Positions 1 to 5,093 of a stretch of 64,000 bases of DNA are shown here, in pieces. The notes beneath the pieces were generated by a model that made no database searches, had not been told where the DNA came from, and was given only the letters and a program-made list of their open reading frames with translations. The DNA lies in the NCBI GenBank assembly GCA_965602015.1, contig OZ271918.1, positions 2,304,001 to 2,368,000 on the forward strand, in the 5' to 3' direction. Both the position numbers and the translations under genes were made by a program. The DNA comes from Salinispira sp. (GTDB lineage Bacteria; Spirochaetota; Spirochaetia; DSM-27196; Salinispiraceae). Positions within the stretch are counted from its first letter, which is position 1; the number at the start of each line of letters is the position of its first letter.

Positions 1-2210
1 TCCAGACTTTTTGCCAGACTTTCGGAAAAATCCCTGTTTTTATCATCGAAGGTTGTTTTGAAGCTCCGAAGCTTGGCAATGAGAGCCATTGAGCGGTCAA
101 TCAGCTGTCCCAGCCGGGACAGTTTGACAGTGAGGGAAAGGAAATCGCTGTTTTTCACCTTGGCCTTGCCCTTCATTTCCACCAGAAGGTCTTCCATGCC
201 ATGGGCCAGGGCGGCGACGGGCTCAAGACCAATTACCGCCGCCTCCCCCTTAATGCCGTGGGTGAGCATTGATATTTGATGAAGCCGGCTCGCCTGATCG
301 CCCTCATCCTTCAGTATATGATTTATCCGGTCTATATCCCGCTTAACATGAGCCAGAAAATCACCTAAAAGCTCGGGGTCGGTGTGTAGCATCCGGTAGA
401 ACAGCTCCATCTCCGACTCGGCCTTGTTCTGTTCCTGTACTATTCGCCTTGAAAGAATGGCTTCTTCGGTTACGTCCCCAATTACAGCCATTATTCTCGC
501 GCCTTCATCATCGGCTATCCTGTGGAATGAGAGCTTCAGATGTTTAGAGGAGATTTTCCCGTTGCCATGGTCGAAATAGCACTCCACCTGGTCAACGGGA
601 TTCAGATTTGCCAGGGCCTTGGGATCGGTTTTGGGATCGGCCAGAAGTTCGAGATAATCCTCAAGCTCACCGGCGGCGGTATCCGACAGGTGGCTGCCGA
701 ACAGTTCGGAAAACCGTCTGCCCTGGAGATCGCTTTGCCCGAGAATCTTCTCGCTGGCCAGGGAATAAAACGGGCCGATTCGTCCCTCCTCGTCCAAAAG
801 CAGGATGCCATCGCTTATATTGCTGAGTATGTTGAGAAATTCGTCCCGGGCGACAGTGGTCTCCTCGAGGCTGTCGAGCACTGCGTTGTAACGACGGGCA
901 ATTTGTCCGACCTCCGTAAAGGGTTCTACCGGCGCCCTCAGGCTCAGATTTGCCGAGCGGGCCTGCTGTTCCAGAACCTGAAAAAACGCATGGGTCTCGG
1001 TATTTTCACCGTGCTCCGACACATTTAAACCCTTCTCTTCGTCATCGGGGTCGACCCTCAGAGGGAAGAATTTGTTAATCAGCCAGAGCAGACTGTATGA
1101 CAGGGCAAATGACCAGGCCCCCGCCACCACTATTCCGATGAGCTGAACGGTCATCTGGCGGTCCAAACTGAGCCCCGTGGCCAGCAGTTCCGGATCTCCG
1201 AAAATCGCCACCGCCAGGGTGCCCCACATGCCCGCAAAGAGATGGACCGGTATGGCTCCCACCGCATCATCTATGCGGAGCTTTTCGAGCATCATGGAAC
1301 TCAGAAGCATTACCACTCCGCCGACGGCTCCGATGACTATGGCGTCAATTTCGCCAACCGCGTGGGCGTTGGCGGTCACCGCGACCAGCCCCGCAAGGGC
1401 GCCGTTGAGTATGAGCATAATGTCCGGCTTCTTGTAGATCGGCCAACCGACAATCAACGCGCCGATCATCCCCGCGGAGGCCGAGAGGGCGGTGTTGACC
1501 AGTATATGGGGGACCTGGTCGTTGAGAGCGAGGGTAGAACCGCCGTTAAACCCGAACCAGCCAAACCACAGCAGGATTACACCCAGGACAACCATGGGGA
1601 CATTGCTGCCGGGAATTTTATGCGATTTGCCGTCTTCGTCGAAGCGGTGGCGCCGGGGCCCGAGAATGAGCAAGGCGGCCAGAGCGATCCATCCTCCCAC
1701 CGAGTGGACGACGGTGCTGCCCGCGAAATCGACGAATCCCAGCTGCTCAAGCCATCCTCCGTCTCCCCCCAGCCAGAAGCTCCCCCAACTCCAATGACCA
1801 AAAACAGGGTAGATGATCGCTGCAAGAATTATGGTCGAGAAAATATATGATGAATACTTCATCCGCTCGGCGACGGCTCCGGAGACTATTGTGGCCGCTG
1901 TTGAACAGAACATCGATTGGAACAAGAAGAACACTCCGGTCCACACGGGATTCTCCGTCATCGAGAGCCGAAGAAAGAAGCCGTTGGTGCCCAGAATTCC
2001 TGAATAACTGAGCCCGAACATGATGGCGAAACCGAATAGCCAAAAGGCCAAAAAAGACACGCCGAGATCGGTGAGATTTTTTATCGCAACATTAATGGAA
2101 TTTTTAGAACGGGTCATACCCGATTCCACCATTGCGAATCCCGCCTGCATGATAAAAACCAGAAATGATGAAAACAAGACCCACAAGATGTTGATCGCGC
2201 TCTGATCCAT
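1..2210 (-). CDS. amt: Ammonium transporter (Amt) fused to HAMP-like, PAS-like and Hpt (CheA P1-like) domains; truncated by the window edge
   Basis: Manual translation from ATG 2210 (AGGAG RBS upstream): MDQSAINILWVLFSSFLVFIMQAGFAMVESGMTRSKNSINVAIKN, DFAGSTVVHSVGGW, WFGFNGGS, DDAVGAIPVHLFAG; then EPFTEVGQIARRYN, ILSNISDGILLLDEEGRI, LTHGIKGEAAVIGLEPVAALAHGMEDLL. No stop seen before base 1, which explains its absence from the ORF track. Confidence 0.93.
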   Translation of the reverse strand, partial: MDQSAINILWVLFSSFLVFIMQAGFAMVESGMTRSKNSINVAIKNLTDLGVSFLAFWLFGFAIMFGLSYSGILGTNGFFLRLSMTENPVWTGVFFLFQSMFCSTAATIVSGAVAERMKYSSYIFSTIILAAIIYPVFGHWSWGSFWLGGDGGWLEQLGFVDFAGSTVVHSVGGWIALAALLILGPRRHRFDEDGKSHKIPGSNVPMVVLGVILLWFGWFGFNGGSTLALNDQVPHILVNTALSASAGMIGALIVGWPIYKKPDIMLILNGALAGLVAVTANAHAVGEIDAIVIGAVGGVVMLLSSMMLEKLRIDDAVGAIPVHLFAGMWGTLAVAIFGDPELLATGLSLDRQMTVQLIGIVVAGAWSFALSYSLLWLINKFFPLRVDPDDEEKGLNVSEHGENTETHAFFQVLEQQARSANLSLRAPVEPFTEVGQIARRYNAVLDSLEETTVARDEFLNILSNISDGILLLDEEGRIGPFYSLASEKILGQSDLQGRRFSELFGSHLSDTAAGELEDYLELLADPKTDPKALANLNPVDQVECYFDHGNGKISSKHLKLSFHRIADDEGARIMAVIGDVTEEAILSRRIVQEQNKAESEMELFYRMLHTDPELLGDFLAHVKRDIDRINHILKDEGDQASRLHQISMLTHGIKGEAAVIGLEPVAALAHGMEDLLVEMKGKAKVKNSDFLSLTVKLSRLGQLIDRSMALIAKLRSFKTTFDDKNRDFSESLAKSL

Positions 2211-2261
2211 ACTGTCTCCTAATACATAAAACCCGAGCCAGCCCGGGTAAAGCTTTTACTG

Positions 2262-2708
2262 TTATTCCAATCCGATAATCAGGAGCGCGGTGTGACCGCG
2301 CCATTTGAGCGGAACCATAAAGGCCGGGGGATTCTGGGTAAACAGCGAGGCCAGTTCGAGACCCCTTCGCACCGCCGGCACCGAGATAAAATATTCCGAG
2401 CCAAGGTGGCGGCGCATATTTCCGGCAATGGTGTTAATGACCTCACCTGCCATATCTTCGAGATCGTCGCCGGAAATATCCTCGTTGATAATTTCCCGGG
2501 CTACATCGTTCAGAAGGGCCTCTCCGGTACTGAACAGCAGCTGCCCCCGGTGACTCCCGGAGACCGCAATGCCTGCGGAAATACTCAGGTTGCGATCCGT
2601 TGAACTGAGTACGTAGGGCACTCCCATTTCAGCCTCCTCTCCGCTGATGCTTTTGAAATATCCGGTGATGACGTCGATAAACACCTGAATGTCGCGAGCC
2701 TCCATCAT
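2262..2708 (-). CDS. cheX: CheX-family phosphatase
   Basis: EDMAGEVINTIAGN contains the ExxN phosphatase motif; ISAGIAVSGSHRG and ISVPAV are typical of CheX. Confidence 0.88.
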   Translation of the reverse strand: MMEARDIQVFIDVITGYFKSISGEEAEMGVPYVLSSTDRNLSISAGIAVSGSHRGQLLFSTGEALLNDVAREIINEDISGDDLEDMAGEVINTIAGNMRRHLGSEYFISVPAVRRGLELASLFTQNPPAFMVPLKWRGHTALLIIGLE

Positions 2709-3085
2709 GTCACCCCCGCCGGGAGGATTCTATGTATTTCTCCCGCGAGTTCCTCGTTGGAAAAGGGTTTTGACACAAAGCCCCGGGCTCCGAGTTTCAG
2801 CGCCCGTAAACCCGTTGCCCGGTCGTTCAGTGCGCTGATAACCAATACATGTACCTCCGGTCGCAGGTGCATCATGCGCTCCAGGCAAGCCAGACCGTCC
2901 ATTCCCGGCATGGTGATATCCAGGGTAACGAGATCGGGTTCAGTGCGGGCAAACTGTTCTAGGGCTGCGGTCCCGTCCGGAGCGCATGTGATGTGATCTA
3001 TTTCAAGACCGGCAAAAACCGAGCTAATGGCTCTTTGAACTATCCTCGAGTCATCGACAATAAGAACTTTCATGTACATGAACAT
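2705..3085 (-). CDS. CheY-like single-domain response regulator
   Basis: KVLIVDDS, DLVTLDITMPGMDG (phosphoacceptor Asp), ISA, SKPF; stop overlaps cheX start. Confidence 0.92.
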   Translation of the reverse strand: MFMYMKVLIVDDSRIVQRAISSVFAGLEIDHITCAPDGTAALEQFARTEPDLVTLDITMPGMDGLACLERMMHLRPEVHVLVISALNDRATGLRALKLGARGFVSKPFSNEELAGEIHRILPAGVT

Positions 3086-3218
3086 GCAAAATATGGGCCA
3101 CTTTTGTTTTTTCTTGCATATTTATACTAAGTTATTACCGGCAGTCGAATTAGCAATCTGGTTACCCATTGCCTTGCCGAGGCGAATACTACTTTTCTGT
3201 ATTTTTTTGCAATACAAG

Positions 3219-3929
3219 CTACGCAGATGTACCAAATAACGAAATAATAGCGTAGTACAGGGGCGGTATGAGGAGGGAGGGAAGAAGGTTAGCCGTCTTG
3301 ATTCGCCGTATCTTTAACAGATCGATACCGATAGCAAAAATCAGAATACCTCCTATATTTGATATCTCACGAATCACCGCCTCGCCGATCCAGGGCTCGA
3401 GATAGGAGGAAAAAAGTGTTAATGAACCCTGATACGCGAGCAATGGCAGAGCGCTAAAGATAACCCCTATTCCCAGGCTCGAGGCGAGAATGACCGAGGT
3501 TATACCATCGAGAATGGATTTTGCGAAGAGTATGCTGTGGTCGGCCTGGAGTCCGCTTTTGATCGAACCGAGAATTGCCATGCTGCCCACGCAATAAATA
3601 AGCGATGCGGTAACGAAGGCTTCGGAAACCTTGCCGTGACCGTCTCCCAGGCGCTTCTGGAGCCGGTCGCCAAGCTTCTCCATCTGCCGTTCAATCCCGA
3701 TAAGTTCGCCGACGACACCCCCGAGGGCCAGACTGATTATAAACAGCAGGGCTTCGCTCTCGGGATCGAGCAGACCCGAAAGGGCGGTGGCCATTCCGAT
3801 GAACAGCACGGCAAGGGCTATGGACTGAAGCAGGGTCTCCTTAAATCGCTCGGGAAGACCGTGTCTTAACAGTACGCCTGTTACTGATCCTAAAATAATA
3901 GCGGCGGCATTGACGTAGGTACCCAGCAT
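3219..3929 (-). CDS. DUF554 (YdfK-like) membrane protein
   Basis: MLGTYVNAAAIILGS, CVGSMAILGS, AKSILDG, ANLLP motifs. Confidence 0.88.
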   Translation of the reverse strand: MLGTYVNAAAIILGSVTGVLLRHGLPERFKETLLQSIALAVLFIGMATALSGLLDPESEALLFIISLALGGVVGELIGIERQMEKLGDRLQKRLGDGHGKVSEAFVTASLIYCVGSMAILGSIKSGLQADHSILFAKSILDGITSVILASSLGIGVIFSALPLLAYQGSLTLFSSYLEPWIGEAVIREISNIGGILIFAIGIDLLKIRRIKTANLLPSLLIPPLYYAIISLFGTSA

Positions 3930-3959
3930 ACAGCCATGGTAGCGCGTTTGATGAGAAGG

Positions 3960-3992
3960 GGCAAACGGCCTCCGGAATTATCCGGAGGCCGT
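3960..3992 (-). terminator. Probable intrinsic terminator after wrbA
   Basis: 12-bp stem ACGGCCTCCGGA/TCCGGAGGCCGT with 4-nt loop, followed by a short T tract on the minus strand. Confidence 0.6.
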
Positions 3993-4029
3993 GCATTTCA
4001 TGGGTGCAATGAAATGCCTGGAAGACTGG

Positions 4030-4638
4030 TCAGCCCGCCAGCTTCTTTGCCAGCTCTGCGGTGCGCCTTCCCTGGAAACGTGCGGCTTCAAGTTCGTTCT
4101 CGCTGGGCATCCGCGAACCGTCTCCTCCGGCTATGGTTGTGGCTCCGTACGGGCTGCCACCGGTTATTTCGTCGACACCCATCTGGCCCTGGAAGGTATA
4201 GGGAAGACCGGCCACAACCATGCCCTGATGGAGGAAGTAGCGGTGGATGCTGAACAGCGCGGCCTCGTTTCCACCGTGCTGGGTTGCCGTGGCAACCATG
4301 GCGCTTCCGACCTTGCCTTCCAATGACTGGCTGGCCCACTGGCCACCGGTCTGGTCAAGAATGTTCTGAACCTGTCCGGGAACATTTCCGTAACGGGTGG
4401 CGGTCACAATTATGTACCCGTCGGCATCGGCGAAATCCTGGGCGCTGAGTACCGGTACTTCGGCGAAGGCCTTTTGTGCTTCTACCGCCCCCATCTGCTG
4501 CAGTACCTCCGCCGGAATCGTCTCGGGAAAACGCTTGAGTTCTACCTCGGCCCCAGCCTGGGCAGCACCTTCGGCCGCGGCTTTTGCCATTATATAATTG
4601 TGTCCGTATGTGGAATAAAAAAAGACCTTAACCTTCAT
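4030..4638 (-). CDS. wrbA: NAD(P)H:quinone oxidoreductase, WrbA family
   Basis: FYSTYGH, ATRYGN, ATQHGGNE, GGSPYGATTIAGGDGSRMPS. Confidence 0.95.
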   Translation of the reverse strand: MKVKVFFYSTYGHNYIMAKAAAEGAAQAGAEVELKRFPETIPAEVLQQMGAVEAQKAFAEVPVLSAQDFADADGYIIVTATRYGNVPGQVQNILDQTGGQWASQSLEGKVGSAMVATATQHGGNEAALFSIHRYFLHQGMVVAGLPYTFQGQMGVDEITGGSPYGATTIAGGDGSRMPSENELEAARFQGRRTAELAKKLAG

Positions 4639-4640
4639 CC

Positions 4641-5093
4641 TTACTCTCCTAAACCGAGTTTTTTGTTCAGCCTGATGTATTCTGCAATTTCATCGTCGCT
4701 GAGATGAGCGCAGGCTCGCTCGATACCCTCAGAGACCCGTTTGTAGCATTCGGCGATAAGCGGCCTGCCCTTCTCAGTGAGAGAAACCACGGTATGCCGA
4801 CGGTCTTGGCTGTCCTGAATCCGGTGCACCAGGTTTTTTTCAACAAGCCGCTGCACGGCGATTGAAATGTTCCCCCGGGACTTCAGGATTTTATCCGCAA
4901 CCTCCGACTGATGCAGACATCCTTTGAAATACAGCGCCTCGAGAATCGCGAATTCCGTCGGGCTAACCTTATCTTCCAGCGGATCATCGGAAAAACTCAT
5001 CTGCAAAAAGCTGTCGCTGGCCCGCATCAGGGTGGTGAACAGCTTCACAGATCGTTTTCGTCGTTCGGATTCTCCAATGGATACTGAGCTCAT
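4641..5093 (-). CDS. MarR-family regulator (MhqR-like)
   Basis: SPTEFAILEALYFKG...ILKSRGNISIAVQRLVEKNLV...DRR...LTEKG. Confidence 0.9.
   Translation of the reverse strand: MSSVSIGESERRKRSVKLFTTLMRASDSFLQMSFSDDPLEDKVSPTEFAILEALYFKGCLHQSEVADKILKSRGNISIAVQRLVEKNLVHRIQDSQDRRHTVVSLTEKGRPLIAECYKRVSEGIERACAHLSDDEIAEYIRLNKKLGLGE

Follow-up and report, generated by a model that had tools for sequence, protein, structure and literature searches.

A stretch of 64,000 nucleotides from Salinispira sp. (the window; G000:C1:2304001–2368000, part of a complete 3.87-Mb genome) carries at its left end a three-gene operon. The genes are read from the minus strand in the order cheY-like receiver, cheX and a kinase in which an ammonium transporter-type (Amt) domain is fused to HAMP, PAS, Hpt and HATPase segments. 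On balance, the operon probably represents a CheA-type phosphorelay that works without CheW and resembles the class III histidine kinase systems. Its transcription is likely to coincide with that of amtB-glnK when nitrogen is short, and a CheY-like receiver of its own is predicted to pass on the ammonium signal. What is observed are the genes with their order, domains and residues, and the DNA sites; we infer the signalling steps from them. What is new is the pairing of two known kinds of protein, the Amt receptor and the class III-like kinase, together with a promoter that is likely to be nitrogen-regulated.

The kinase gene occupies positions 1–2210 of the window (minus strand), which hold the first 736 of its 914 codons. 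The whole open reading frame is G000:C1:2303466–2306210, and its stop lies 534 bases left of the window. An earlier reading of the window, made from its sequence alone (the sequence-only reading), had given the positions of all three genes, a kinase frame running from ATG 2210 open to the window edge, and an expected C-terminal HATPase_c domain beyond it. The positions agree with the open reading frames found here, the frame continues past the edge as a single one of 914 codons, and Pfam detects HATPase_c at residues 773–911 (E 3e-11). The cheX gene (2262–2708, minus strand) encodes 148 amino acids with the active-site motif D-x2-G-E-x2-N (Pfam CheX E 1e-15). It is preceded by the single-domain receiver gene at 2705–3073 on the same strand, with 122 amino acids from ATG 3073 (Pfam Response_reg E 3e-27). 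Alignment places the receiver residues at D11, D12, D56, S84, F103 and K106 in the 126-residue numbering. As had been noticed, cheX starts before the receiver gene ends, with four bases in common. The receiver gene called earlier is thus present, but its start is probably ATG 3073 rather than 3085, because 3085 falls within a sigma-54 element and relatives start at the matching Met. Recent transfer of the operon was rejected as an explanation of its presence; its G + C content is 54.4% vs 53.8% for the genome.

Domain boundaries in the kinase, all on the minus strand, are as follows. The Amt domain (residues 9–403; 1002–2186) is supported by Pfam Ammonium_transp (E 5e-124), by alignment to the ammonium receptors Sd-Amt1 and Ks-Amt5, and by Foldseek. 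A HAMP-like linker (residues 405–455; 846–998) has no Pfam match. It aligns with residues 404–448 of Sd-Amt1, a region modelled as HAMP by the authors of that structure (PMC11152129), and the HAMP-like segment of the sequence-only reading is upheld to that extent. The PAS domain (residues 466–582; 465–815) scores E 1e-4 with Pfam PAS_9, under the curated cut-off, and is also seen in the model. The Hpt domain (residues 612–721; 48–377) matches Pfam Hpt at 613–688 (E 4e-10); it has K654, E673 and the predicted phospho-acceptor H651, whose codon is at 260–258. The CheA P4-type ATPase domain (residues 728–911) starts at 1–29 and lies mostly outside the window. Its motifs N781, H785, D821-x-G-x-G and G874-x-G-x-G are intact, and its best solved matches are CheA P4 domains (E 4e-23). 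An AlphaFold model of the kinase has a mean pLDDT of 83.4 and a pTM of 0.51, and the arrangement of the domains is hence unsure. In this model residues 405–455 form a helix-connector-helix of modest confidence, the PAS segment has a PAS-like order of strands and helices, and a long helix follows, then the Hpt bundle and a short loop that joins the ATPase.

CheA has a P1-P3-P4-P5 core (PMC10782961). Pfam gives no CheW, H-kinase_dim or HisKA in the kinase, whereas CheW and H-kinase_dim are detected in each of the two full CheAs of the genome. Identity of the kinase as a true CheA was rejected, as P3 and P5 are absent along with CheW and H-kinase_dim. The proposal of a CheA-like kinase on an Amt-type input, with neither a methyl-accepting chemotaxis protein nor CheW and with its own receiver and CheX, is supported as a description of the genes. 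All 59 aligned proteins long enough to include the position have H651, and all 57 that extend to the ATPase motifs have the N, G1 and G2 boxes. The CheX motif is found here and in the CheX of all 28 relatives; the receiver acidic pair and Lys are kept in 21 of 21 aligned sequences, as is the acceptor Asp. Judged by alignment, the output chain of Hpt, ATPase, receiver and CheX is intact in its catalytic residues.

The closest solved protein to the kinase is Sd-Amt1 of Shewanella denitrificans, an Amt-HAMP-GGDEF protein (PDB 8QJ3, 8QJ4, 8QPF; PMC11152129), which matches residues 3–448, i.e. Amt and HAMP, at E 8e-130. Ks-Amt5 of Ca. Kuenenia stuttgartiensis (PDB 6EU6; PMC5764959) comes next, and the two take Foldseek ranks 1–4 for the Amt domain, with a TM-score of 0.95 to 8QJ3. 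The pore residues are intact: F101 and F221 of the Phe gate, W142 and S225 of the Trp/Ser filter, and the twin His H169 and H323. By alignment the N1/N2 ammonium ligands are Q22, E29, N45, D48, T107 and S110, with switch residues K44 and Y122. In Sd-Amt1 itself the side-chain ligands are Q22, E29, N45, D48, T104 and S107, with a K44/Y119 switch (PMC11152129). Among 60 fused proteins aligned, 53 cover the ligand positions; 42 of these keep all side-chain ligands and both switch residues, 11 have Q22R and N45V, and E29, K44, D48, T107, S110 and Y122 are found in all 53.

Sd-Amt1 thus shares with the Salinispira kinase the N1/N2 ligands and the Lys/Tyr switch, and it poses the same problem of coupling a trimer to a dimer (PMC11152129). 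Its output is a diguanylate cyclase, whereas here there is a PAS-Hpt-CheA-type ATPase, Leu at position 49, and a receiver with CheX. Ks-Amt5 is likewise an Amt domain fused to a histidine kinase, and its ligands align. It differs in being a classical DHp-CA kinase without HAMP or PAS, and, although it is the only characterised Amt receptor kinase, it has no known response regulator (PMC5764959); here the His is on an Hpt domain, and a receiver and phosphatase are adjacent. Ammonium as the ligand of the Amt input is a good inference by analogy, drawn from the fusion and from these two tested relatives and not from the motif.

One group of relatives, family f8 (L294–L298 and L300, in genomes G403, G404, G406, G411, G408 and G405), carries the replacements Q22R and N45V, and His stands in place of Gln near residue 98. 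Where DNA downstream of these kinases can be seen, the next gene encodes a cyclase-like protein whose catalytic motifs are degenerate. These Amt kinases may be a natural variant that is locked in one state or senses something else. Mixed trimers from tandem Q-type and R-type paralogues were considered and not seen, as family f8 has one copy per genome. A metagenome scan with the R-type alignment returned no full-length match among 79 loci, and a scan of genomes returned four among 77, in both cases because the patterns were generic for Amt.

A protein search with residues 380–914 scored 8000 candidates and gave 455 matches, of which the best 120 were listed. At least 36 near full-coverage relatives are among the matches listed, and 34 of the 36 have Amt, Hpt and HATPase together in one chain, which, with the single 914-codon frame, rules out a frameshift or a split kinase gene. 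Named full-length relatives are from Spirochaetaceae, Spirochaetia and Treponema metagenome-assembled genomes, and one cluster includes a protein labelled Bacteroidota. Within the phylum, the cytoplasmic part is matched in 46 of 401 genomes at E 1e-30 or better, a count that retains, here and below, one true CheA (in G262). The Amt form is found in 19 of the 46, Salinispira included. A receiver followed by cheX lies directly upstream in 17 of the 18 other Amt-form genomes, and the contig of the remaining one starts inside Amt. With four and then seven further loci added to these 17, the cheY-cheX-kinase order holds in 28 of 28 loci with visible upstream DNA. Excluded from this count is a Treponema metagenome-assembled genome locus (L009:4164–5939), which encodes a 591-amino-acid Amt-HAMP-PAS protein that ends after PAS; kinase, cheY and cheX are all missing there.

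The PAS-Hpt-ATPase core is also joined to other inputs. A scan of 23 of the 35 non-Amt kinases showed MASE6, GAF, 7TMR-DISM, periplasmic or HAMP-linked inputs, and a receiver and CheX are present at 30 of the 35 loci. The cassette is of an exchangeable-sensor design, in which Amt sits in the slot filled by other sensors in sister cassettes. The sequence-only reading knew of no characterised system with such a layout; its novelty is less supported, as the sensor-Hpt-HATPase design with receiver and CheX is common with other sensors. In a quick kinase tree the main Amt clade has an SH-aLRT support of 92, with three Amt proteins outside it. The Salinispira genome has two further Hpt-HATPase kinases without CheW, three in all, each with its own cheX and receiver. 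One is a 747-amino-acid HAMP-PAS protein (L156, G000:C1:2795446–2798615), and the other is a 552-amino-acid membrane protein with the order kinase-cheX-cheY (L172, G000:C1:1366900–1369394).

Class III histidine kinases, reportedly described by Wuichet and Zhulin in 2010 and Adebali in 2017, are said to comprise a sensor, an Hpt with a CheA-type ATPase, a single-domain receiver and CheX, and we take the layout of the operon to be that of such a system. Control of type IV pili is said to be the function proposed for them; to our knowledge, class III kinases have only a computational description and this guessed role. The operon shares with them an N-terminal sensor on an Hpt and CheA-type HATPase, a single-domain receiver and CheX nearby, and the lack of P3/HisKA and of CheW. 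It differs in its Amt input, its nitrogen-type promoter, the lack of a soluble chemoreceptor beside it and the lack of pilT in the genomes tested. According to a paraphrase in another paper, class III kinases always occur with a pilT-type marker (PMC6501615). PilT is above the TIGR01420 cut-off in none of the 46 genomes, and no T2SSE-family ATPase is above cut-off in this complete genome. A role in type IV pili was rejected given the absence of PilT. As the PilT correlate fails and the architecture is the same, the operon is regarded as a class III variant in genomic context. The spirochaete F2 chemotaxis system (CheA/CheX/CheY3) also has an Hpt, a P4-type ATPase, a CheX phosphatase and a related receiver lineage, but the present kinase lacks P2, P3 and P5 and has its own membrane input. 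The genome has an F2 operon, cheA-cheW(CheR-fused)-cheX-cheY, and a second full CheA elsewhere.

Upstream of the receiver gene is a predicted sigma-54 (-24/-12) promoter at 3085–3101 on the minus strand (GG at 3099–3098, GC at 3087–3086), which agrees with the consensus at seven of eight positions. The two strands of the genome together hold 24 such sites, this one included. Sites scoring at least 6 are found within 330 bases upstream in 14 of 28 related Amt cassettes, with 0.3 expected from shuffles, and in 0 of 25 non-Amt cassettes. Of the controls in this comparison, at least three have another gene ahead of the receiver, and the positives include some that are closely related to one another. 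In the Salinispira operon, as in five family-f8 loci and two others with a variant -12, the site stands exactly 11 bases from the ATG and there is no ribosome-binding site. Because of this 11-base gap to ATG 3073 and the lack of a ribosome-binding site, a leaderless or near-leaderless transcript is predicted. The genome has rpoN and eight sigma-54 activators. Sigma-70 promoters and terminators were also sought and were at chance level.

Further upstream are two predicted activator sites of the type TACA-N4-TGTA, each with one mismatch. The proximal dyad is at 3190–3201 and the distal one, 30 bases away, at 3220–3231, where it overlaps the last codons of an upstream DUF554 gene. The dyad is present in 6 of 16 upstream regions inspected (0.15 expected), a figure to be read with its definition post hoc from these regions. 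Pairs 29–33 bases apart, with at most two mismatches, occur in 8 of 29 Amt cassettes (0.02 expected) vs 0 of 25 others. Genome-wide, the pair is found at two places only, before amtB-glnK and at 3190–3231. The amtB-glnK locus (L164, G000:C1:1988263–1991963) begins with a GAF-AAA-HTH activator above the NifA cut-off and has three dyads at 30-base spacing as well as a sigma-54 site. In DNA other than that used to define the dyad, the pair and a sigma-54 site lie between the activator gene and amtB in five of six relatives with that order. The pair also precedes the activator gene itself in four loci, in a comparison that covered 28 of 30 retrieved loci, and G030 has an exact dyad and a sigma-54 site matching at 8/8 positions ahead of nifH. 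In Salinispira a glutamate synthase-like gene, so named from its sequence, has a single one-mismatch dyad and a weaker site upstream. Classical NifA (TGT-N10-ACA) and NtrC-type sites were also looked for upstream and were at chance level or absent. As the sigma-54 site and tandem dyad are shared with amtB-glnK, which stands beside the NifA-like activator, expression of the operon is likely to be nitrogen-regulated. The activator would bind the dyad, with nitrogen shortage as the putative signal.

The target of the receiver is the least certain part of the system. In 26 genomes with visible DNA the next gene downstream encodes a cyclase-like protein in 14, a CBS-SpoIIE protein in four and neither in eight, Salinispira among them. 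The linked cyclase is of a distinct subfamily, with catalytic motifs that are degenerate in family f8 and in L006. Receiver-cyclase fusions of the same subfamily are found beside three non-Amt cassettes (L128:6436–7506, L131:6506–7603 and L134:1133–2260). The module had been called self-contained; it does have its own receiver and CheX, but most relatives encode the effector in a fourth gene, and here it would be unlinked. One unlinked Salinispira gene (L174, G000:C1:3706527–3707783) encodes a CBS-SpoIIE protein that matches the fourth gene of some relatives at E 2e-83, and is a candidate in-trans target. It lies in a cluster of anti-anti-sigma/anti-sigma type, with an Hpt-like protein and a lone receiver.

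The mechanism envisaged begins with the NifA-like activator, which would bind the tandem dyads and open the sigma-54 promoter, as the conserved DNA sites suggest. The Amt trimer would then bind ammonium at N1/N2 and re-pair two of its three HAMP linkers, by analogy with Sd-Amt1 and Ks-Amt5. The change might pass through PAS and the long helix to the ATPase, which, given the intact motifs, would phosphorylate H651 of Hpt. The phosphate would go to D56 of the receiver and be removed rapidly by CheX, as the gene order points to. As there is no methylation system, the device would be a level switch signalling that ammonium is back, and not a gradient follower. In the last and weakest step the receiver would act on a signalling enzyme. 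For most relatives this may be the cyclase-like or CBS-SpoIIE protein encoded in the operon, and for Salinispira a target encoded elsewhere.

A number of observations weigh against this reading of a nitrogen-regulated ammonium switch. The published receptor signature, QX6EX15NX2D[F/T]X54-60TX2[S/T] (PMC11152129), fails in its strict form, since position 49 is Leu and not Phe or Thr. The strict form matches only 2 of 61 rows examined, and the kinase matches once position 49 is free; the Amt domain is classed as working like an ammonium receptor because position 49 is not among the ligands listed for Sd-Amt1. The stand-alone AmtB of the genome, 46% identical and beside glnK, bears the same N1/N2 ligands, and sequence cluster 2 of the same study includes transporters (PMC11152129), so the ligand signature is not proof of sensing. 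The 11 proteins in which Q22 and N45 are replaced still keep the operon. No sigma-54 site reaches threshold in 14 of 28 relatives, the dyad pair is missing from 21 of 29 Amt cassettes, and the dyad itself was defined after the upstream regions had been viewed. A link to nitrogen fixation was tried and is not significant (nifH in 7 of 19 Amt-form vs 5 of 27 other genomes, p 0.19). In addition, Salinispira has no fourth effector gene in the operon and no close member of the cyclase subfamily in its genome.

The principal rival is that the receiver acts on the flagellar switch, whereby an array-free ammonium input under nitrogen shortage would bias reversals or speed, as chemokinesis or a crude taxis free of adaptation. 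We consider this unlikely but worth serious attention. The best solved matches of the receiver are archaeal and Thermotoga chemotaxis CheYs. A quick receiver tree unites the 21 Amt-cassette receivers, with weak support (80), beside the spirochaete F2 CheYs. CheX is a chemotaxis phosphatase, and eight of the 26 operons, among them that of Salinispira, lack any other effector gene. The Salinispira genome encodes FliM, which occurs in 45 of the 46 cassette genomes but also in 381 of 401 sampled genomes. With flagella in 95% of the sampled phylum, co-occurrence says nothing on motility and was rejected as support for it. Identity of the receivers to F2 CheY is only 35%, and they are more diverse within their own group (50% vs 70% for F2 CheYs). 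At an alpha-4 position that we take to correspond to Ile95 of E. coli CheY, which contacts FliM, all 21 receivers have Gly, Ala or Ser, and all 16 F2 CheYs have Val. There is also no methylation or CheW link for gradient sensing. Given the different alpha-4 pattern and the cyclase-like and SpoIIE fourth genes of relatives, a non-motor target is favoured, with the motor as its main rival. Control of motility, raised in the sequence-only reading, thus finds no specific support; flagella are near-universal in the sample, PilT is absent, and the fourth gene is mostly cyclase-like or SpoIIE.

It is rather improbable that the Amt domain still transports, or is mainly a membrane scaffold, with the kinase governed by PAS or internal nitrogen status and not by ammonium at N1/N2. 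The intact pore, the ligand residues shared with stand-alone AmtB, the PAS domain common to cassettes whatever their input, and the retention of the operon in family f8 after loss of two ligands are all consistent with it. However, both characterised Amt fusions, Sd-Amt1 and Ks-Amt5, keep the pore residues and do not transport (PMC5764959, PMC11152129). A separate AmtB-GlnK is available for ammonium uptake, and Amt takes the slot of MASE6, GAF, 7TMR-DISM or periplasmic sensors in sister cassettes. Very improbable is a feedback loop in which the phosphorylated receiver acts on the NifA-like activator or on PII and shuts down the regulon or nitrogenase when ammonium returns. The promoter signature shared with amtB-glnK agrees with such a loop. 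So does gene position in two genomes: the operon is divergent from nifH-PII-PII-nifD-nifK in G171 (L166:6482–19567) and is about 7 kb upstream of nifH in G030 (L165). Yet nothing links the receiver directly to the activator or to PII proteins, such proximity is seen in only two of the seven nifH-bearing Amt-cassette genomes, and no nifH is found in the complete Salinispira genome. No nifH is present in G094, a genome nearly identical to G030 that carries the operon.

It is possible, although somewhat doubtful in its full extent, that an undescribed nitrogen regulon of free-living spirochaetes is in view. A NifA-like activator, even without nitrogenase, would turn on, from a leaderless sigma-54 transcript, a receptor kinase that senses ammonium without an array. 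A dedicated receiver of CheY lineage would relay the signal to an effector in trans, whether a cyclase-like protein, a SpoIIE phosphatase or the motor, and in one family the binding site would have been adapted, by Q22R and N45V, to a different ligand or state. On that reading, the operon would supply for the first time a ligand for a class III kinase and a receiver for an Amt receptor kinase. The operon offers a class III kinase with a predictable and cheap ligand in genomes without PilT, and it suggests which operator and activator may serve nitrogen control in spirochaetes. It also presents a mechanistic puzzle, that of a kinase without a dimerisation domain on a trimeric receptor. A full-text search that covered few subscription papers found no paper on an Amt-Hpt-CheA-type kinase or on the promoter signature; Fig. 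7B or the supplements of PMC11152129, or Tremblay and Hallenbeck (2009), may list the architecture.

Upstream of the operon, at 3219–5093 of the window, Pfam identifies a DUF554 membrane protein, a WrbA-like flavoprotein and a MarR regulator. These families are absent from the flanking genes of those relatives that were scanned. A hairpin of seven pairs with a T-rich tail lies at 2231–2248, between cheX and the kinase start. As a terminator it was rejected, being at chance level and not kept in the closest relative, whose gap is about 10 bases. Elsewhere in the genome, perfect-score sigma-54 sites at G000:C1:1855753 and 2370324 precede two genes that, from their starts, resemble sigma-70-family factors, which suggests a cascade of the RpoN-to-RpoS type. 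An identical 17-base sigma-54-like site stands before five genes, of which two appear to be copies (G000:C1:1738074, 3440730, 3445347, 3452128 and 3456028), and is probably part of a repeated element.

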